A program made the position numbers and the translations under genes. A DNA stretch of 64,000 bases from Myxococcales bacterium (GTDB lineage: Bacteria > Myxococcota > UBA727 > JABDBI01): assembly GCA_023248545.1 (NCBI GenBank), contig JAHFEF010000004.1, forward strand, positions 22,043 to 86,042, written 5' to 3'. The notes beneath the pieces are model-generated. The model saw only the letters and a list, made by a program, of their open reading frames with translations, ran no database searches and was not told the DNA's origin. Shown here one piece after another: positions 28,017 through 62,441 of this stretch. Position 1 is the first letter of the stretch; each line of letters opens with the position of its first letter.

Positions 28017-28715
28017 ATGTATCGTGCCTTTGTTCAGCCAGGTTTTTTGGATGCAGCTCAAAATGGCCAAGAGCTTATCTTAGACTCAGAGACAGCCAAG
28101 CGCTTCACGCGTGTCCTGCGCCTAGAGCCCGGCACTGAAGTGGAGCTCTTGGATGGCACAGGACGTATCGTCACGGGTGTGTTAGACCAAAAAATCTTAA
28201 AAAATATCCAGATTTTGCACATCAAACCCAAAGGGCCTGTTATCAAGCTATATCAAGCATTGGTCTCTATGGATAAGCTGGAACAAATCACGCAGCACTC
28301 TACTGAACTAGGCGTCGCAGAGATTATTCTATTTAAGTCTGAGCGCAGCCAAATAGATTTTAAAGACAAAATGGCGAGTAAGCTAGAGCGCCTCACGCGC
28401 ATCGCTCAAGATGCCAGTCGTCAATGCGGCAGGGCCGATGTGCCGGTGATAACAGGAGTGAAATCCCTCCTAGCCTCCCTTTTTCAAAGGGAGGAACAAA
28501 TCCTGATATGCACACCAGGTGCCTCTTCCCCCTTTGAAAAAGGGGGATTCAGGGGGATTTCTGTTTTAATCGGCCCCGAAGGCGGCTTTTCGCCGACTGA
28601 AATCCAAGCTTTCAAATCTCAAGGCGCCCAAGAAATTTCACTCGCCCCGTATGTGCTGCGTACTGAAACTGCCAGCTTGGCGGCACTGGCCCAAATCCAA
28701 GGAGCGTTCCTATGA
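28017..28715 (+). CDS. rsmE: 16S rRNA (uracil1498-N3)-methyltransferase
   Basis: MYRAFVQPG start (ATG 28017), LYQALVSMDKLEQITQHSTELGV, C-terminal LIGPEGGFSPTEI...LRTETA. Carries two inverted copies of the hairpin element. Confidence 0.8.
   Translation: MYRAFVQPGFLDAAQNGQELILDSETAKRFTRVLRLEPGTEVELLDGTGRIVTGVLDQKILKNIQILHIKPKGPVIKLYQALVSMDKLEQITQHSTELGVAEIILFKSERSQIDFKDKMASKLERLTRIAQDASRQCGRADVPVITGVKSLLASLFQREEQILICTPGASSPFEKGGFRGISVLIGPEGGFSPTEIQAFKSQGAQEISLAPYVLRTETASLAALAQIQGAFL
28459..28496. repeat. G/C-tract hairpin element, copy B (inside rsmE, same orientation as copy A)
   Basis: tgaaatccctcctagcctccctttttcaaagggaggaa. Both stem arms carry matching changes (CCTCCCTTT/AAAGGGAGG). Translated as KSLLASLFQREE. 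Confidence 0.75.
28525..28563. repeat. G/C-tract hairpin element, copy C (inside rsmE, inverted relative to copy B)
   Basis: cttccccctttgaaaaagggggattcagggggatttctg. Translated as SSPFEKGGFRGIS. Confidence 0.8.
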
Positions 28716-43561: not shown

Positions 43562-44359
43562 TCAAGGCCTACGGGGAAATTGCCCATAATCCGGTTTCCG
43601 CTTTTCTAAGTAGGCATTTCGGCCTTCTTGGCCTTCTTCGGACATGTAAAACAGCATAGTCGCACACCCAGCCAGCTCTTGAAGACCTGCTTGGCCATCG
43701 CAGTCGGCATTGAGCGCGGCTTTTAAGCATCTGATTGCCATGGGCGAGTTCGCTAAGATTTCTCGGCACCAGGTATCGACTTCGGCATCGAGTTGATTGA
43801 GGGGCACAACTTTATTGACCAAACCCATTTCAAGCGCTTCTTGGGCATTATATTGCCGACACAAAAACCAAATTTCACGCGCTTTTTTCTGACCGACGAT
43901 TCGGGCCATATAACTGGCGCCATAGCCACCATCAAAAGATCCCACTTTGGGACCCGTCTGACCAAAAATAGCGTTATCAGCCGCAATGGTCAGATCGCAC
44001 ATCATATGCAACACGTGACCGCCGCCGATGGCATACCCGGCGACGCGAGCAATCACGGGTTTGGGACAGGTTCTAATTTGACGCTGCAAATCCAACACAT
44101 TAAGTCGATGCACGCCTTGATCATCTTGATAGCCAGCATCGCCCCGCACGCGCTGATCCCCACCGGAACAAAACGCTAGTTCGCCTGCGCCGGTCAAAAC
44201 CACCACGCCAATTTTTTGGTCATCGCGCGCGTCATTGAGTGCGTCAGACATCTCAACAACAGTCAGTGGCCTGAACGCATTGCGAACTTCGGGGCGGTTA
44301 ATAATTATTTTGGCGACGCCATCGGCTTTTTTATAAACAATATCCGTATACTTTTGCAT
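43562..44359 (-). CDS. menB: 1,4-dihydroxy-2-naphthoyl-CoA synthase
   Basis: [31 protein letters not shown]...AFCSGGDQ...[12 protein letters not shown]...DGGYG. ATG 44359 preferred over TTG 44395. Confidence 0.9.
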
Positions 44360-44434
44360 AGGAGCAGCTCTAAACAGTCTGGTTCTGATCGTCAATCCTT
44401 TGGTGCAACCAAGGCTATGTTTTGGCTGGATGCT

Positions 44435-47400
44435 TTAAGGAGTCTGTAACACAGCAAGTACCATACTTGCAGCCTCGCGCACATCGACATCTGAATCAGT
44501 TAGACACGTTGCAATCTGCTTGCGAATCGTTGGATCCGTGGGCTTAATCGCACCCAGAGCCGAAATCGCATTCAGGCGCACATCGGCATTTGAATCAGTT
44601 AGGCACCCTGCAATCTGCTTGAGAATCATTGGATCCGTGCACTTAATCGCACCCAGAGCCCGAATTGCAGCCGAGCGCACAAAGGGGTCTGAATTCGTGA
44701 GTTTAATCGCACCCAGAGCCTTAATTACAACCCGGCGCACAAAGGAATTTTGATCAGCTAGGTACCCTGCAATCTGCTTGAGAATCGTTGGATCCGTGGG
44801 CTTAATCGCACCCAGAGCGTTAATTGCAACCAGGCGCACATCGGCATTTGAATTAGTTAAATACCCTGCAATCTGCTTGAGAATCGTTGGATCCGTGGGC
44901 TTAATCGCACCCAGGGCATCAGTTGCAACCCAGCACACATCAGCGTTTGGATTCGTTAGGTATGCTACAATCTGCTTGAGAATCGTTGGATCCGTGGGCT
45001 TAATCGCACCCAGAGCCACAATTACAGCCCGGCGCACATCGGCATTTGAATCAGTTAGACACAGGGCAATTTGCTGGTGAATCGTTGGATCCGTGGGCTT
45101 AATCGCACCCAGAGCCTTAATTGCACCCTGGCGCACACCGACATTTGAATCAGTTAGACACAGGGCAATTTGCTGGTGAATCGTTGGATCCGTAGATTCC
45201 ATCGCACCAAGAGCCTCAATTGCAACCAGGCGCACATCGGCATCTGAATTAGTTAGGTACCCTGCAATCTGCTTGAGAGTCGTTGGATCTGTGGGTTTAA
45301 TCGCACCCAGAGCATTAATTGCAACCTGGCGCACATCGGCATTTGAATCAGTTAGACACGTTGCAATCTGCTGATGAATCGTTGGATCCGTGGGTTTAAT
45401 CGCACCCAGAGCCACAATTACAGCCCGGCGCACACCAACATCTGAATCAGTTAGGAATGCCGCAATCTGCTGATGAATCATTGGATCCGTGGGCTTAATC
45501 GCACCAAGAGCATTAATTGCATACCAGCACACCATGGCACTTGAATCAGTTAGACACGCTGCAATTTGCTGGTGAATCGTTGGATCCGTAGGTTCCATCA
45601 CACCCAGAGCGTTAATTGCAACCTGGCGCACATCGGCATTTGAATCAGTTAGACACGTTGCAATCTGCTGATGAATCGTTGGATCCGTGGGTTTAATCGC
45701 ACCCAGAGCATTAATCGCAGCCTGGCGCACATCGGCATTTGAATCAGTTAGACACGTTGCAATCTGCTGATGAATCGTTGGATCCGTGGGTTTAATCGCA
45801 CCAAGAACACCAATTACACTCTGGCGCACATCGGCATTTGGATTCGTTAGGTACCCTACAATCTGCTTGAGAATCGTTGGATCCGTGGGTTTAATCTCAC
45901 CCAGAGCCACAATTACAGCCTGGCGCACACCAACATCTGGATCAGTTAGACACGCTACAGTCTGCTGGTAAATCTCAGAATCCGAAGGCACCGACGGTAA
46001 ATCCTCCATCCCAAGTATTGCGCCCAATCGTTCGAAAGACCTCAGTTCTTGAAGTGTACTTGGCAGGTCTTGAGCCACCAGTCGCTCTTTCACAGAAAAT
46101 CCCGATTCAAGTTTAGCTCGAACTAACTCATGGATTTTTTTCGGCAGTCTTACAGCTGCGGCATTCATAATCAGTATATCACGATTAATAATGATATCGA
46201 GATCAAATTTCTTTGCCAAATACTGGTTAAGATCTATGCGCTCAGTGCTCGCTTCTGCTTCTAACTTCCGATACAGGTCAACATGTGCCTTTCGAAAATT
46301 AGGCAGATCCAGGACTCGAAGGTTATTAGAGCGAATCACCCTGAGCTCCAATACAGTCCCTTCAGGGCGAGCATACTTGGCAGGTATCGAACGCATTTGG
46401 GCGGTATAGGTGCCCGCTCCGAAATGAGCTGCTCCCTGTTTTTTAGGGATACTGGCAATCAACCCATTTCGGATCATGGTGAGCACATATTCGAGCTTCG
46501 GTGTTCCGTGATAGAGCAGACCCTTGTCCGTATACTTCCATTGAAATTCAGCAGGACTCACTAAAAATTTATCGATGGTATGGTCGCTCACCCGACGCGT
46601 ATCGATTTTCTGATTTCGCGTAAATTCAGGAATCAGAGGCAGGTTTTTCTCATTTCTGGCCCCAAACATCGAAATCTGATGCACCAAATGTGCTATGGGA
46701 TCTCCCTCTCGAGGAACACTAAATCGATTATGCGCCGCTTCAAAACGAGCATTTCGGATCATTTCTTCAAATCGTTTCAGGGGCCTGTCACCCTCGAGCG
46801 GAATCTTTTTATTAAGTTTAGCCAATATAAGCTCTAGTTCTTGAATTAATATCTGAGCTCCCTTTGTCGACGGCTTTAGGAAGGGCAATTCTAACAGTGG
46901 TCGAAGCATCCGAATGCATTGTTCGTCTCGATTGTCTGCATGTTCTGGAGACACATACTCGATTTCGCCTTTCAAAAATCGCCCTAAAGTGCCAGGAACA
47001 CCTTCGACAAACTGAGTCCCAGAAGCAGATGAAACGGGGAAAGCGAGCCAGTCCAATGGACTACCACCTTGGCCCATAGAGCGTTCCAACTGAGCTTTGC
47101 GTTCGACAACGTCGCCCACCGGCAAAACACTTCTGGTCAGCACCGAGGTTTTGTCTGCCTGCGGCATGAGTTGGTCAGTGGCACTCTCGATAAATTGTTT
47201 GGTTATCTGCTTAATCTCTTCACGTTTATTCGGAGTGCAGCCACTCGAAAAATCGACAGAGATATCTAAATCACTCCCAATTCCTAGGGCAGATAGTTTG
47301 GGCAGGTCTTGATCTATGGGAAAAATCTCGAACAGTGCACCGGGAATAGGCTTTCGACTAGCTCCTTGAATAATGCGATTCAATACATTTTCTGTTGTGT

Positions 47401-57083: not shown

Positions 57084-57681
57084 AGAAGGCGAGATATTAA
57101 GGGGCCGGGGCGAGGGTCAATATGAACTCGAAGCCAACTCACACCTCGAACTCACCCAAATCACATTTGCCGACACCAATTTATCTCAAACTTTCGAAAT
57201 TGTTTTTCTAGGCGAAGGAGCCTCCTGCAATCTATCGTTTTTAGATTTAGCTAAAAATTCTGGGCACTTAGAATCGATCATTCATGTTAAGCATCAGGTT
57301 CCGAATTGCAAAAGTGTCTTGGTACACAAGGGTCTTTACAACGACGCTGCGCAGGGAACTTTCAAAGCCATGGTTGAAGTGGCTCCCCATGCACTCGATA
57401 CAGACGCCTCGCAACTACATCGAAGCTTGCTCTTATCCCCGACGGCAAAAGTTCACGCAGAGCCGCATTTGCAAATCCAGGCAGACGCCGTCAAATGCAA
57501 ACATGGCGTGAGCATTGGGCAATTGGACGACAAAGCTTTATTCTATCTTAAAACCCGTGGCCTCGACGAACCAACAGCCCGGCGTTTTTTAATTCAAGGC
57601 TTCGCCAAAGAAATATTAGATCACATCCCAGACGTCGAATCACGCGCCCAACTTGAACAACAGGTGTTCGCATGGATATAA
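57067..57681 (+). CDS. sufD: SufD, short form (C-terminal beta-helix/helical part only)
   Basis: About 205 aa versus about 420 aa typical. [77 protein letters not shown]. Confidence 0.75.
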
Positions 57682-58850
57682 GAAGCCAATTCCCCGTATT
57701 AAATCAGCAGGTTCATGGCAAGCGCTTGGTGTATTTAGACAGTGCCGCGACGTCGCTCAAGCCATTATCCGTCACAGAAGCCGAGCGCCAGTATGAACAA
57801 GAATATTGCGCCAACATACACCGTGGCGTTCATGCGCTGAGCGAGAAAGCAACGCTGGCGTATGAAAGTGTTCGAACACAAGCCCAGCAGTTTTTAAATA
57901 CGCGTTCTGAGCGTGAAATTATTTTCACGTCGGGCACCACGCAGGGCATCAACTTGGTGGCCTATTCCTATGGCCGCAAATTCTTAAAACCTGGCGATGA
58001 AATCTGGATATCGAGTTTAGAACACCACTCTAATATCGTCCCCTGGCAGGTCCTGTGCCAAGAAATTGGCTGCATTCTCAAAGTGATTCCCCTGGGTCAC
58101 ACCGGCGATCTCAAGTTTTCGAAAAAATCTAAGCTGCTAGCAATCGCGTACGCATCGAATGCCTTAGGCATATTCAACCCAGTGCAAGATTGGATCGCCC
58201 AAGCCAAGGCCCATCATATGGCCGTCTTGATCGACGCTGCTCAAGCCGCGCCGCATATCCAACTCGATGTCCAAAAACTAGATTGCGATTTCTTGGTATT
58301 CTCGGGCCATAAAATCTACGGCCCCACTGGTACTGGCGTGCTTTATGGCCGCGAGACTTTGTTAGAGCAAATGCCTCCGTATCAAACGGGCGGCGATATG
58401 ATCGAACATGTGAACTTCGAAAAAACGACTTATGCCAAGCTGCCGGCTAAATTTGAGGCCGGAACGCCCAATATCTCTGGTGTTATTGGACTTGGCGCAG
58501 CGATCGAGTTTTTATTTTCCCCCTTTGAAAAAGGGGGATTAAGGGGGATTTCTGACTACGCCAAACAACGCCTCTTAGAAATCCCCGGCATCCAACTCTT
58601 TGGCGACGTCCCAGAAAAATTACCCATCTGGTCTTTCTTACTCGGCGATATTCACCCGCATGATATCAGCTCAATTATAGACCAAGAGGGCGTCGCTGTA
58701 CGGGCAGGGCACTTGTGCACGCAGCCACTCATGAAGCTGCTCGGCGTGCCTGCTCTTGTACGTGCCTCTCTAGGTGTTTATAATACCCGTGAAGACATCG
58801 ACGCCCTAATCACAGCTCTATACAAAGTCAAACAGGTGTTTCGATGCTAG
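57672..58850 (+). CDS. sufS: cysteine desulfurase SufS (group II)
   Basis: YLDSAATSLKP, NIHRGVH, SGHKIYGPTGTGVLY (PLP Lys), RAGHLCTQP (catalytic Cys). Contains hairpin element copy D. Confidence 0.9.
   Translation: MDIRSQFPVLNQQVHGKRLVYLDSAATSLKPLSVTEAERQYEQEYCANIHRGVHALSEKATLAYESVRTQAQQFLNTRSEREIIFTSGTTQGINLVAYSYGRKFLKPGDEIWISSLEHHSNIVPWQVLCQEIGCILKVIPLGHTGDLKFSKKSKLLAIAYASNALGIFNPVQDWIAQAKAHHMAVLIDAAQAAPHIQLDVQKLDCDFLVFSGHKIYGPTGTGVLYGRETLLEQMPPYQTGGDMIEHVNFEKTTYAKLPAKFEAGTPNISGVIGLGAAIEFLFSPFEKGGLRGISDYAKQRLLEIPGIQLFGDVPEKLPIWSFLLGDIHPHDISSIIDQEGVAVRAGHLCTQPLMKLLGVPALVRASLGVYNTREDIDALITALYKVKQVFRC
58515..58554. repeat. G/C-tract hairpin element, copy D (inside sufS)
   Basis: ttttccccctttgaaaaagggggattaagggggatttctg. 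Translated as FSPFEKGGLRGIS. Differs from copy C by only a few bases. Confidence 0.8.
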
Positions 58851-59840: not shown

Positions 59841-61079
59841 TTGAATCTGAGCTATCATGTATCTGATATGCTCAAACACATTGAATTCGAGAGGCATGGC
59901 ACACCCGATTCTGACACTGAACAACGTTCCATCTCTCCCGGAGGTGTGACCGATGATGATACTGAGTTAAACACCCCCTCTACGCAACGATCTTTGTCGC
60001 CGGTAGCGCCGGAGAGGCTGAAAAGTCCAGTGATGCCCAGTGCTGATCTGAGCTCACAAGAAATCAGACGTTTGTCGAACGAGATAGCCCACCAACCTGA
60101 CATTGATCCGGATTTTGCTCACTATGCAGGCCTGGAGTTATTGGCGCGGCATTTGGCATACGCCGAATCTTTGCCGCTGGGATCAAAAGTGGATCTGATG
60201 GTCAATGGGCGGCCAGTCACTTATCAATACCGTGAATCAGCCCAGTTTGGCAGAAGCCTGATTGAGGGCCATATGACGGCCATGGCCCTGACACCGGAGC
60301 AGGAAGATGATCCATCCCCACCGATTATCCTGTTCCATGGAACAGTAGTGGATCCTTTATCGCATCGATGGGCGGGGAACACCTGGCTCAGCAATTTTGA
60401 CCCGCGGGGAATTGGCCGAAGCTTGTTAAATTGGCGAGGGACAGGTCTGGATGAGCAGGTGAATAACTTTTTTGATAGATACACAGGGAGAGGAAGCCAC
60501 AAGGCCATCGTAGTAGGCCATAGTTTGGGAGGCACTCTGGCTAACTTGGCAGCCATTTATAAGCCCAATTGCATAGAAAAAACGGTGACGTTTAACGCTC
60601 CGGCCGTTCATTGGTATGCCAAGCAGCAGGCGGATTCAACGCCTCACCAGCAGCGGCCTAAAGTTTGGCGATTCGAACCAGCCATCAACGGCGCGCCTGC
60701 AGACTTCATTGCCCAATTGGGTTCTCGTAAAGACGGCGCAACCATTTTGATGAATACTCCACCGACAACAACTTTGGGGGCTCATTCAGCCCCTCTGTTT
60801 TTGAACAATGCGCCGTTCGTGAATGAAGGGCCGGGTACTTTTTCGGAACGCCTCACGCGGGCAGAGAAGGCAGGTCAAGCACTCACGCAGCATTTTAATG
60901 AACAACGCCCTTATTGGAGAAATCTTTTTCCTGCCCATGGGAGTTTGGCTGTACAAACAATAGGTTCTTGGTTCGCTTATCCTCTGACCGGTGCTGTGCT
61001 AAAAGTCTTTAGGCCTGTGATAGGGGCCTTTAGGACCATCAGAGTTCTTGGCCGTTCCGGACGAGGTTTGATAAAATAA
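59841..61079 (+). CDS. lipase-like alpha/beta hydrolase with disordered Ser/Pro/Asp-rich N-terminus (effector-like)
   Basis: Nucleophile elbow AIVVGHSLGGTLANLAA (GHSLGG, class-3-lipase-like). TTG start in the track, first ATG at 59868. No signal peptide. Confidence 0.6.
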   Translation: MNLSYHVSDMLKHIEFERHGTPDSDTEQRSISPGGVTDDDTELNTPSTQRSLSPVAPERLKSPVMPSADLSSQEIRRLSNEIAHQPDIDPDFAHYAGLELLARHLAYAESLPLGSKVDLMVNGRPVTYQYRESAQFGRSLIEGHMTAMALTPEQEDDPSPPIILFHGTVVDPLSHRWAGNTWLSNFDPRGIGRSLLNWRGTGLDEQVNNFFDRYTGRGSHKAIVVGHSLGGTLANLAAIYKPNCIEKTVTFNAPAVHWYAKQQADSTPHQQRPKVWRFEPAINGAPADFIAQLGSRKDGATILMNTPPTTTLGAHSAPLFLNNAPFVNEGPGTFSERLTRAEKAGQALTQHFNEQRPYWRNLFPAHGSLAVQTIGSWFAYPLTGAVLKVFRPVIGAFRTIRVLGRSGRGLIK

Positions 61080-61089
61080 TAACAGCCTC

Positions 61090-61279
61090 TCTTGCCAACT
61101 GCACTTCGTTACGGCAATTCTCTCGAGATAACGGGGTGTAGCTCAGCTTGGTAGAGCGCTTGGTTCGGGACCAAGAGGCCGCATGTTCAAATCATATCAC
61201 CCCGAGATTTCTACCTTTGGCTTCACCCGCGGTGTAATCTCCCTCTGCGCCTGTTCCATCTCAGTTTGGAGCAATTGGC
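61090..61279 (+). repeat. duplicate B1: tRNA-Pro plus about 40 nt upstream and about 70 nt of polA-like 3' end
   Basis: Matches 62252..62441 at a constant offset of 1162 nt. I count 6 mismatches over the first 170 nt. Identity decays over the last 20 nt. Confidence 0.9.
61132..61205 (+). tRNA. tRNA-Pro (CGG), duplicated copy with a C50-A64 mismatch in the T stem (possibly decaying)
   Basis: CGGGGTGTAGCTCAGCTTGGTAGAGCGCTTGGTTCGGGACCAAGAGGCCGCATGTTCAAATCATATCACCCCGA. Clean cloverleaf except that the T-stem 3' strand is CATAT instead of CATGT. Confidence 0.75.
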
Positions 61280-61342: not shown

Positions 61343-62239
61343 ATGAAACTGGTTTTATCGCTGATTGCGATTGCTTTTTTTTCGAGTTGTGGCTCTGGGA
61401 CGTCATCTGGCGGACCCTCTGTGTCGACGGGCGCTTCGACCAAGTTTGCGCTGACGCCTGCAAAAACGCTGACAAACTCAAGTGTCATTCTTCAATCGAT
61501 TACACTCAATGACGATGGAACTGGAACGCTGGTTGTTTCAGAACCCCCGAATACCTATACGTTTGCACTGAATTACCTGTTCGACACAGGAAGTTTTAGT
61601 TCAATTAACACCAGCGACTCTGTGACCGTCACGTCTTCAGACAACAGCTCGGCGCCAGCTCAAATATCGCGTCAAGCCGCTGGAATAGGAAATATCAAAG
61701 GCTATCTCCAATTTGTCATCAAAGGCGCCTATTACTCAGTAAAAGCTTATTTCCACTATACAAACCAAGTGGGCGGCTCCACGCTCCAACAGGCCATCGA
61801 TGATCGGCCTCAAGATATGCAATACAATGGCTCTGCCACGGTCACAACGCCTGCTGCATGCGATCCAACAACGCTGGATACTGCGACGACAGCTACCCTT
61901 AAAAACTGTTGTGTTTATACACAAGACGATTTGAAAATCCTTAACCACCCAAGTTGCCAGTCTTGCAGAACGGATCCAACTTGTTTGGGAACAGCAACAA
62001 CAACTACTACTACTACAACAACTACAAATGTCTGGCCCAAGTGCACAACGTGTAACATTGAGTTCCAGGCCAATTTCAGCCTCAACAGCATCTTTTTTGT
62101 CACTGCGACAGCCAATTCCTCAGGAACCTACCAAAGCTCAAGCTATGGTTGCAGCGGTGCAGATTGCAACGCCATCAAAACTTGCCTTCTGCAAAACAGC
62201 ACCTTAAAAAACCAGTACATTGGGTATACCTGTCAATAA
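61343..62239 (+). CDS. hypothetical lipoprotein with Thr10 tract and Cys-rich C-terminus
   Basis: MKLVLSLIAIAFFSSCGSG (lipobox). ACA/ACT run at 61997..62026 encodes TTTTTTTTTT. Confidence 0.6.
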   Translation: MKLVLSLIAIAFFSSCGSGTSSGGPSVSTGASTKFALTPAKTLTNSSVILQSITLNDDGTGTLVVSEPPNTYTFALNYLFDTGSFSSINTSDSVTVTSSDNSSAPAQISRQAAGIGNIKGYLQFVIKGAYYSVKAYFHYTNQVGGSTLQQAIDDRPQDMQYNGSATVTTPAACDPTTLDTATTATLKNCCVYTQDDLKILNHPSCQSCRTDPTCLGTATTTTTTTTTTNVWPKCTTCNIEFQANFSLNSIFFVTATANSSGTYQSSSYGCSGADCNAIKTCLLQNSTLKNQYIGYTCQ

Positions 62240-62251
62240 TAGCAATTCAAG

Positions 62252-62441
62252 TCTTGCCAAAACCACTTCGTTACGGCAATTCTCTCGAGATAACGGGGTG
62301 TAGCTCAGCTTGGTAGAGCGCTTGGTTCGGGACCAAGAGGCCGCATGTTCAAATCATGTCACCCCGAGATTTCTGCCTTCGGCTTCACCCGCGGTGTAAT
62401 CTCCCTCTGCGCCTGTTCCATTTCTGTTTGCAACAACCGGC
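62252..62441 (+). repeat. duplicate B2 (the copy contiguous with the intact polA-like gene)
   Basis: See B1. Confidence 0.9.
62294..62367 (+). tRNA. tRNA-Pro (CGG)
   Basis: Same as the copy at 61132 but with an intact T stem (GCATG/CATGT). Anticodon loop TTCGGGA. No encoded CCA. The last 9 nt overlap the stop region of the convergent polA-like ORF. Confidence 0.9.

Follow-up and report, generated by a model that had tools for sequence, protein, structure and literature searches.

A 35-nt hairpin repeat family resident in conserved genes of a myxococcal genome and its association with DUF559 nuclease genes

RESULTS

Four hairpin units lie within three genes of the window

The DNA analysed here is a 64-kb stretch of contig JAHFEF010000004.1 from a Myxococcales bacterium (the window). 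It carries four copies of a short hairpin repeat, the unit, all of them inside genes for conserved enzymes: copy A in the gene for an RluA-family pseudouridine synthase, copies B and C in rsmE and copy D in sufS, which is located in a sufCDS-sufU cluster (Table 1). The window has a G+C content of about 48%, and about 92-95% of it is coding sequence. As read from the alignments, the reading frame and the homology with orthologues are unbroken on both flanks of every unit in RluA, RsmE and SufS.

The unit consensus is TCCCCCTTTGAAAAAGGGGGATTNAGGGGGATTTC (35 nt), and the copies in the window are 35-37 nt long. Each has a hairpin (C5-6 TTT, a 3-nt variable loop and AAA G5-6, with a stem of 9-10 bp), followed by a tail in which a few nucleotides lead to a second G-run, a repeat of the 3' arm, and then to an ATTT end. 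When the window was searched on both strands with the 19-mer core CCCCCTTTGAAAAAGGGGG, allowing up to 3 mismatches, there were 7 strand-matches, all of them at four places, against 0.01 expected from shuffled sequence. A hidden Markov model (HMM) trained on 102 unit copies from other genomes matched copies A, B, C and D in the 64 kb and no others. The sequence check and the HMM thus place all four copies where a first-pass annotation of this DNA had read them within coding sequences, and the peptides it had quoted for them are correct on translation.

Table 1. Hairpin units and host genes in the window
Feature	Position	Strand	Description
RluA-family pseudouridine synthase gene (host gene 1)	25594..26370	-	258 aa; PseudoU_synth_2 PF00849, E = 2.9e-23; gene call on L201
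Copy A	25798..25835	-	C6/G6 type, CCCCCCTTTGAAAAAGGGGGGTCAGGGGGGATTTTCC; 12-aa predicted peptide; HMM E = 1.3e-8
rsmE, 16S rRNA m3U1498 methyltransferase (host gene 2)	28017..28715	+	232 aa; Methyltrans_RNA PF04452, E = 2.7e-41
Copy B	28460..28495	-	CCTCCC/GGGAGG type, antisense to rsmE; predicted peptide KSLLASLFQREE; HMM E = 1.5e-4
Native rsmE codons between copies B and C	28496..28526	+	QILICTPGAS, beta strand; aligns with SIMLVASPEAS of element-free orthologue L205
Copy C	28527..28561	+	G5 type, TCCCCCTTTGAAAAAGGGGGATTCAGGGGGATTTC; predicted peptide SPFEKGGFRGIS; HMM E = 1.1e-14
sufS, cysteine desulfurase (host gene 3)	57672..58850	+	392 aa; Aminotran_5 PF00266, E = 1.3e-126; PDB 5vpr, E = 3e-124
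Copy D	58518..58552	+	G5 type, TCCCCCTTTGAAAAAGGGGGATTAAGGGGGATTTC; predicted peptide SPFEKGGLRGIS; HMM E = 1.1e-14

When folded alone as DNA, each unit forms a stem of 9 bp and a loop of 3 nt (-8.8 to -12.2 kcal/mol), which bears out the stem length proposed earlier. The two copies in rsmE form an inverted doublet that folds as one long DNA hairpin (-29.9 kcal/mol, z = -5.4). Of the unit's six reading frames, five can be free of stop codons, subject to base N, and the units in the genes are predicted to encode Gly/Pro-rich segments of 12-13 residues. An Rfam scan of the window returned three tRNAs only, none of them at the units, and there were no matches to a promoter-like or terminator-like consensus at the units.

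An independent metagenome assembly of the same species (L201) has copies A, B and C and shows 3 differences in 5,743 nt (99.95% identity), so an assembly artefact is excluded for these copies. Among the three differences is a C/G single nucleotide polymorphism (SNP) at 28467, inside copy B. The RsmE cluster representative P0001 (232 aa, from L201) is listed as 100% identical; it differs at this SNP, L to V.

The units stand in place of native residues

The closest relatives of the host proteins (66-85% identical) have other sequences, or other hairpin repeats, at the unit sites, and distant orthologues of all three enzymes have native sequence there. The shared peptides are accordingly not ancestral, as the first-pass annotation had argued. 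The alignments point to replacement rather than simple insertion.

In RluA the unit peptide was found in none of the 20 other aligned relatives, the closest of which are 66-74% identical. The site reads HYKLL-KRERRDVY-RLEV in most relatives (KRERRDVY-like), and P0256 and P0253 have other, possibly decayed, sequences there. Twelve residues stand for 8 native ones, a net change of +4 aa; at the DNA level, copy A occupies 37 nt against 25 nt of native loop codons in L303. The sole sequence common to the junctions of the filled site (window) and the empty site (L303) is CTTC.

The SufS site differs in every close relative. A native segment of the form iGfeaiaahE..L..ya is kept in orthologues from many phyla and in more distant members of the clade, and copy D stands in place of native EKVGLETAAAWERELL-type residues. 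In the seven closest relatives (79-85% identical) the sequence between GLGAAIEFL and YAKQRLLEIPGI is shortened, and it is different in each of them. Thirteen residues stand for about 16, the start of a helix included, for a net change of -3 aa. The left junction, TTTTTA, is followed in the window by a G5 unit, in L289 by another subtype, CCCCTCTCC, in reverse, and in L287 by a different palindrome.

In RsmE the stretch from GRADVP to IGPEGG is 38 aa long in the window and 45 aa long in the element-free L205; it measures 39 and 45 aa in the element-free P0039 and P0020, respectively, counted from the alignment. The two units (25 aa) displace about 32 native residues, including a helix. G5/G6 units are at the same two positions in P0009, P0013 and P0016, which are only 56-68% identical. 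At the second position the units of the window and of its relative L202 differ by several homopolymer indels that compensate one another in frame, a difference more easily explained by wholesale exchange than by stepwise mutation in an essential gene.

Other RsmE relatives have a hairpin family encoding PSPxxGEGLGVR (GEGLGVR-type) at the same two positions, again tails-out. This second family has the form CCCCTCTCC...GGAGAGGGG with a G-rich tail, and occurs in L206 (10001-10702), P0004, P0005, P0007, P0008, P0010 and P0015. The G5 unit and the GEGLGVR-type repeat are alike in architecture, which suggests a superfamily of units.

The first-pass annotation had placed the units as insertions in surface loops. 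In the AlphaFold model of RsmE (mean pLDDT 92), the residues encoded by copy B (149-159) are predicted to be coil with a pLDDT of about 70 and are followed by a native strand (160-165). The copy C residues 170-179 are likewise modelled as coil, and GIS joins a strand (180-185) before GPEGG. The SufS model (mean pLDDT 73, from a shallow alignment) has SPFEKGG as a low-confidence loop, and LRGIS opens a helix (290-301). Confidence is lowest in the unit-coded coils of both models. The hairpin half of the unit therefore agrees with a loop position, but the tail half (GIS, LRGIS) falls in a strand or helix and native residues have been lost. Judged from these alignments, the units replace native residues rather than simply being added.

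The unit family is spread across phyla and is mostly intergenic elsewhere

The exact 23-mer TCCCCCTTTGAAAAAGGGGGATT was found at at least 120 loci in other genomes. These include isolate or complete genomes (Luteimonas sp. R10, Methylotuvimicrobium buryatense 5G, Lysobacter, Pseudoxanthomonas, Iodobacter and Muribacter) and metagenome-assembled genomes (MAGs) of Desulfobacterota, Nitrospirota, Dehalococcoidia, Binatia, Kapaibacteria and others. Conservation spans the whole 35 nt, through ...GATTNAGGGGGATTT. The loci listed hold at least 214 units, arranged as 34 tails-in doublets, 35 tails-out doublets, 3 direct pairs and 74 single units; inverted doublets thus number 69, as against 3 direct pairs. 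A full-text literature search for the unit sequence found no relevant paper.

Three subtypes were seen: G5, G6 and CCTCCC/GGGAGG, the tail G-run covarying with the stem in the last. Pairing of a CCTCCC/GGGAGG unit with a G5 unit, the arrangement in rsmE, is common elsewhere (L002, L016, L064 and L120). Copy B had previously been read as carrying matched changes in both stem arms that preserve the hairpin. The arms are instead those of a distinct subtype, and compensatory evolution of copy B in place was rejected, since the subtype already exists in other phyla.

Among the matches listed, a long open frame holds at most 20 of 109 copies in other genomes, and at least about 80% of those copies are intergenic. 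In the clade of the window, by comparison, all five independent sites are genic (RluA, RsmE twice, SufS, and TilS in L202, which carries an in-gene unit; Fisher p = 4e-4 versus other genomes). In-frame unit peptides do occur in other phyla: a type IIG restriction-modification enzyme (L067, 294-3653) has two copies, one of them just before the NPPY motif, an SNF2 helicase (L061, 1570-3582) has a doublet and a DUF2064 protein (L059, 4333-5325) has a unit. In the frame-2 copies of L067 and L061 base N is C, by which TGA and TAA are avoided.

Clustering of the open reading frames (ORFs) within 1.5 kb of the listed loci revealed no recurrent family, the largest cluster being an ABC ATPase at 5 loci; no transposase or RAYT thus emerged as a regular neighbour. 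A GTAG/CGTC tag lies within 10 nt, on either side, of just 2-3% of the listed units. The 23-mer is present in only 13 viral contigs. The sole contig among them with two copies, L298 (1027-1687; IMGVR_UViG_3300027728_001619), has a perfect 448-nt tandem duplication containing a unit doublet and a 70-aa ORF that is mostly unit peptides. This is not a cassette of the kind described below, and phage carriage was rejected.

Units bracket DUF559 nuclease genes

L206 is from a syntenic relative of the window organism and has a DUF559 ORF of 136 codons between a G5 unit and an inverted G6 unit; a second G5 unit, a direct repeat of the first, follows. A Dehalococcoidales MAG (L050) has the same layout with other unit subtypes. 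In this layout, here called the cassette, DUF559 genes carry the inverted ends seen in the doublets, tails-in; DUF559 is a nuclease and not a known transposase.

Eighty DUF559 loci were collected on protein similarity alone, among the matches listed. With a strict regular expression (regex), a unit was found upstream of the gene at 51 of them, downstream at 50 and on both sides at 31; with nhmmer the figures were 61, 55 and 39. In the regex set the upstream units are plus-oriented and start 36-65 nt before the ATG, and the downstream units are minus-oriented and start 0-26 nt after the gene. The far flanks of the same loci have 0.135 units per kb, about 28-fold fewer. Of the units in the nhmmer set, 55 in plus orientation are no more than 100 nt upstream of the gene, and 47 in minus orientation are no more than 100 nt downstream of it. 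The unit tails point at the DUF559 gene on both sides.

The two ends of one cassette are more alike than ends across loci (0.70 versus 0.64, p = 0.02), and often have the linker and loop in common. One Desulfobacterota MAG has four copies of the cassette, at least 98% identical, at four loci. At these loci (L262, L263, L266 and L269, about 1450-1960 in each) the cassette is nested in an outer palindrome, CCCTCCCCCTCGACGGGCATAAGCGCTAAC ... GTTAGCGCTTATGCCC...GGGGGAGGG, pieces of which recur in doublet spacers elsewhere. In L209 the last ~20 nt of the DUF559 gene and the adjoining unit are repeated nearby, once direct and once inverted; it looks as if the cassette ends had been copied along with a little gene sequence. 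Several cultured hosts, Pseudoxanthomonas sp. z9 for example, have both units and cassettes.

The genes match DUF559 (Pfam PF04480, E = 1e-35 to 1e-38; PDB 3HRL, E = 2e-20). All 80 genes were compared for the catalytic motif VDF..E.DG.QH, which is conserved among them, with E.DG.QH at least 90% conserved. We found no paper connecting DUF559 with repeats in the literature on DUF559, on REPIN, RAYT and Vsr, or on EDxHD nucleases.

Other features of the window and its relatives

The nearest proteins to those of the window are from uncultured bacteria that NCBI labels Myxococcaceae or Myxococcota. In a set of species-representative genomes, the SufS nearest to that of the window is 55% identical. 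Syntenic relatives are L202 (GCA_964635635.1), L205, L206 (GCA_040384225.1) and L287 (GCA_037134495.1). The lineage of the window shortens its proteins in general: SufS, for instance, lacks a further 7 residues after residue 148 when compared with orthologues from other phyla and is 392 aa long against about 400-420 aa. Toxin-antitoxin-type genes (PhdYeFM/PIN, PemK and AbiEii) are inserted beside rsmE or the RluA-family gene in relatives (L204, 1233-1921; L303, 1947-2512 and 4745-5396; L205, 6810-7569), and the window is without them there.

Directly after the suf cluster, positions 59841-61079 (+) encode a protein of 412 aa whose N-terminal third is low-complexity and whose core is an alpha/beta-hydrolase like that of class-3 lipases (GHSLGG). 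The ORF at 44435-47845 (-), for a 1136-aa protein, has about 16 tandem 99-nt (33-aa) repeats at 44333-46078 that are 60-83% identical. These are HEAT repeats by Pfam, and residues 433-494 show a weak match to a PARP catalytic domain. Finally, a 190-nt duplication (61090-61279 and 62252-62441, 94% identical) has a tRNA-Pro(CGG) gene in each copy. A 298-aa ORF without a Pfam match (61343-62239) lies between the two, and the arrangement looks like an insertion at a tRNA gene.

DISCUSSION

Proposed origin of the units

We think it probable that the copies in the window are non-autonomous single units of a mobile hairpin family associated with DUF559, which have been kept only where they are in frame. 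The partner would be a cassette of ~450 bp in which two units, tails inward, stand around the gene for a 115-125 aa DUF559 endonuclease (Vsr-like, EDxHD-type). From this arrangement we infer mobilization by DUF559 through a cut-and-repair route. The nuclease would recognize the palindromic unit, and cleavage followed by copying or repair would both spread and renew units. With so much of the window coding, most new copies would land in genes, and the survivors would be those that kept the frame, had no stop codon and lay where the protein tolerates them. Recurrent rounds of cutting and repair, wherever a unit is already in residence, could remove native flanking residues, giving replacement rather than addition. 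They could also make alleles hypervariable among close relatives at the unit sites alone, and could bring other hairpin families to the very same junctions. Renewal by the same route might explain how units close to the consensus are found inside genes that have diverged to 56% identity.

It is possible, though far from assured, that there is a minimal mobile element of a class not recognized before, with the unit-flanked DUF559 gene as its autonomous form. Its gene-less ends would have spread across phyla in the manner of repetitive extragenic palindromic (REP) elements, and its cutting and repair would swap protein loops.

Several observations weigh against a role for DUF559 in moving the units. 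No DUF559 gene lies within the 64-kb window, and we know of no activity of DUF559 on the units. A unit is missing from 10 of the 80 listed DUF559 loci by strict regex, and the apparent overlap of 6 assemblies between the unit set and the DUF559 set, among the matches listed, may be inflated. In the Desulfobacterota MAG the amplified segment runs past the units to the outer palindrome, which makes the true ends of the mobile segment uncertain. Neither a target-site duplication nor a clear target motif was found at the units, the 5' flank being weakly T/A-rich. As for replacement, plain insertion followed by independent loop-trimming deletions could give the same result in a lineage that shortens its proteins, and the other 7-aa deletion in SufS fits this.

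Alternative explanations

The units might be classical REP elements and REPINs (REP doublets forming hairpins) mobilized by RAYTs (REP-associated tyrosine transposases, of the HUH Y1 type), with the DUF559 association being incidental. The units have the size and hairpin form of REPs, their inverted doublets combine two subtypes as in bacterial interspersed mosaic elements (BIMEs) and REPINs, and they are mostly intergenic elsewhere. We nevertheless regard this explanation as improbable. The GTAG/CGTC tag is almost absent beside the units, no protein family recurs within 1.5 kb of the listed loci, and the gene that the units do bracket is DUF559. Furthermore, the DUF559 cassette is multi-copy in one genome, as opposed to RAYTs, which are typically single-copy (PMC5581495). 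REPIN-RAYT systems are reported to be mostly vertical in inheritance and to persist within individual lineages, as against a 23-mer found across phyla.

Units might otherwise be patches, copied from units elsewhere in the genome when breaks or stalled forks are repaired at hairpin-prone sites, by gene conversion or microhomology-templated synthesis with no dedicated enzyme, and DUF559 would then be a landing place or cargo. Such patching would suit the replacement of native DNA, the lack of a target-site duplication, the different hairpin families at identical junctions and the frame-compensating homopolymer indels at one position of RsmE in the window and L202, which point to wholesale swaps. 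It leaves unexplained the fixed orientation and spacing of units around DUF559 in many phyla, the four near-identical cassettes in one genome and the near-identity of a 35-nt sequence across phyla, and we consider it unlikely, if less so than mobilization by RAYTs. We give very little credence to a function of the unit itself, as an adaptive Gly-rich loop module or a regulatory mRNA hairpin. The recurrence of the pair at the same two positions in distantly related RsmE proteins (P0009, P0013 and P0016) would agree with such a function, as would the residues that the unit tails contribute to secondary structure in the models. The same DNA, however, is used in either orientation and in more than one frame, so that the peptides are unrelated; most copies elsewhere are intergenic; the sites are hypervariable among close relatives; model confidence is at its lowest in the unit-coded coils; and the units have no promoter-like or terminator-like signal. 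The unit is also homopolymer-rich and most of the related sequences come from MAGs, which would be in keeping with chance similarity of low-complexity sequence or an artefact of assembly or binning. That explanation is refuted by the shuffle expectation, by the unit in complete isolate chromosomes and by the independent assembly L201, and the intact reading frame in all host genes also opposes it; its probability is negligible.

Comparison with known repeats and nucleases

Rickettsia palindromic elements (RPEs) were reportedly described by Ogata et al. in 2000 as lying in frame in protein genes and being translated as extra peptide segments. They are ~100-150 bp long, are restricted to Rickettsia and related bacteria, and contribute an additional segment. 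The first-pass annotation had likened the window copies to RPEs. The likeness holds in that both appear, from their sequences, to be selfish palindromic repeats tolerated in frame in conserved protein genes. It does not extend to a repeat peculiar to its source genome: units of the present family are 35-37 nt long, occur in many phyla, lie mostly between genes in other lineages and take the place of native residues, all of which sets them apart from RPEs as described.

With REPs, BIMEs and REPINs the units have in common GC-rich hairpins of 20-40 nt, two subtypes of which are inverted with short spacers. To our knowledge, RAYT tyrosine transposases are the only established mobilizing enzymes for REPs. 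The units differ from REPIN-RAYT systems in being without the GTAG/CGTC tag, in carrying a third run that repeats the 3' arm, in bracketing a Vsr-like PD-(D/E)XK nuclease (DUF559) rather than an HUH tyrosine transposase, in having a cassette that can be multi-copy and in being nearly the same in many phyla. The two kinds of system are alike in having dozens of non-autonomous copies for each associated gene and in that this gene is bracketed by inverted units (PMC3116915, PMC3337134).

The DUF559 genes studied here are free-standing, encode ~120 aa, are flanked by hairpins and have many gene-less repeat copies. In contrast, the homing endonuclease I-Bth0305I is a larger two-domain protein encoded by a phage group I intron. 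DUF559 has been grouped with Vsr and with this EDxHD enzyme, being of the same nuclease fold and catalytic motif family (PMC3424549, PMC9403480); a homing endonuclease is among the members of the Vsr/DUF559 clade (PMC3424549). I-Bth0305I acts as a homodimer, and the target that it cuts is pseudopalindromic (PMC3239194); by analogy a palindromic unit would be a suitable target for DUF559.

Non-autonomous elements with terminal repeats offer a further comparison. Coxiella transposable elements of the miniature inverted-repeat type (MITEs) and Neisseria Correia elements are 100-300 bp long and have target-site duplications and an ancestry of the insertion-sequence type, and for the units neither a duplication nor a transposase was found. 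Both are described as non-autonomous inverted repeats that may be found within ORFs or fused to them (PMC5896051, PMC10969869).

Significance

In-frame palindromic repeats (RPEs) and hairpin repeats tied to a gene that they flank (REP-RAYT) are already known. What appears to be new is this family of units and its breadth across phyla, together with the mode of replacement with recurrent turnover inside essential genes and the link to a Vsr-like nuclease in place of an HUH transposase. Few unexplained features of bacterial genomes are as common as short hairpin repeats of the REP kind. If a REP-like family is indeed tied to DUF559, this very large domain of unknown function would gain a role, and the study of repeat persistence would gain an independent case.

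The copies in genes indicate that 35-nt repeats can overwrite 8-30 residues of RsmE, SufS, RluA and TilS without destroying the enzymes, and the recurrent rewriting of the same sites in related lineages bears on the tolerance of protein loops. They also matter for annotation and for the question of spurious repeat peptides in protein databases built from metagenomes. If cutting and repair do take place at the units, they would amount to a natural form of loop-swapping of essential proteins in compact genomes.

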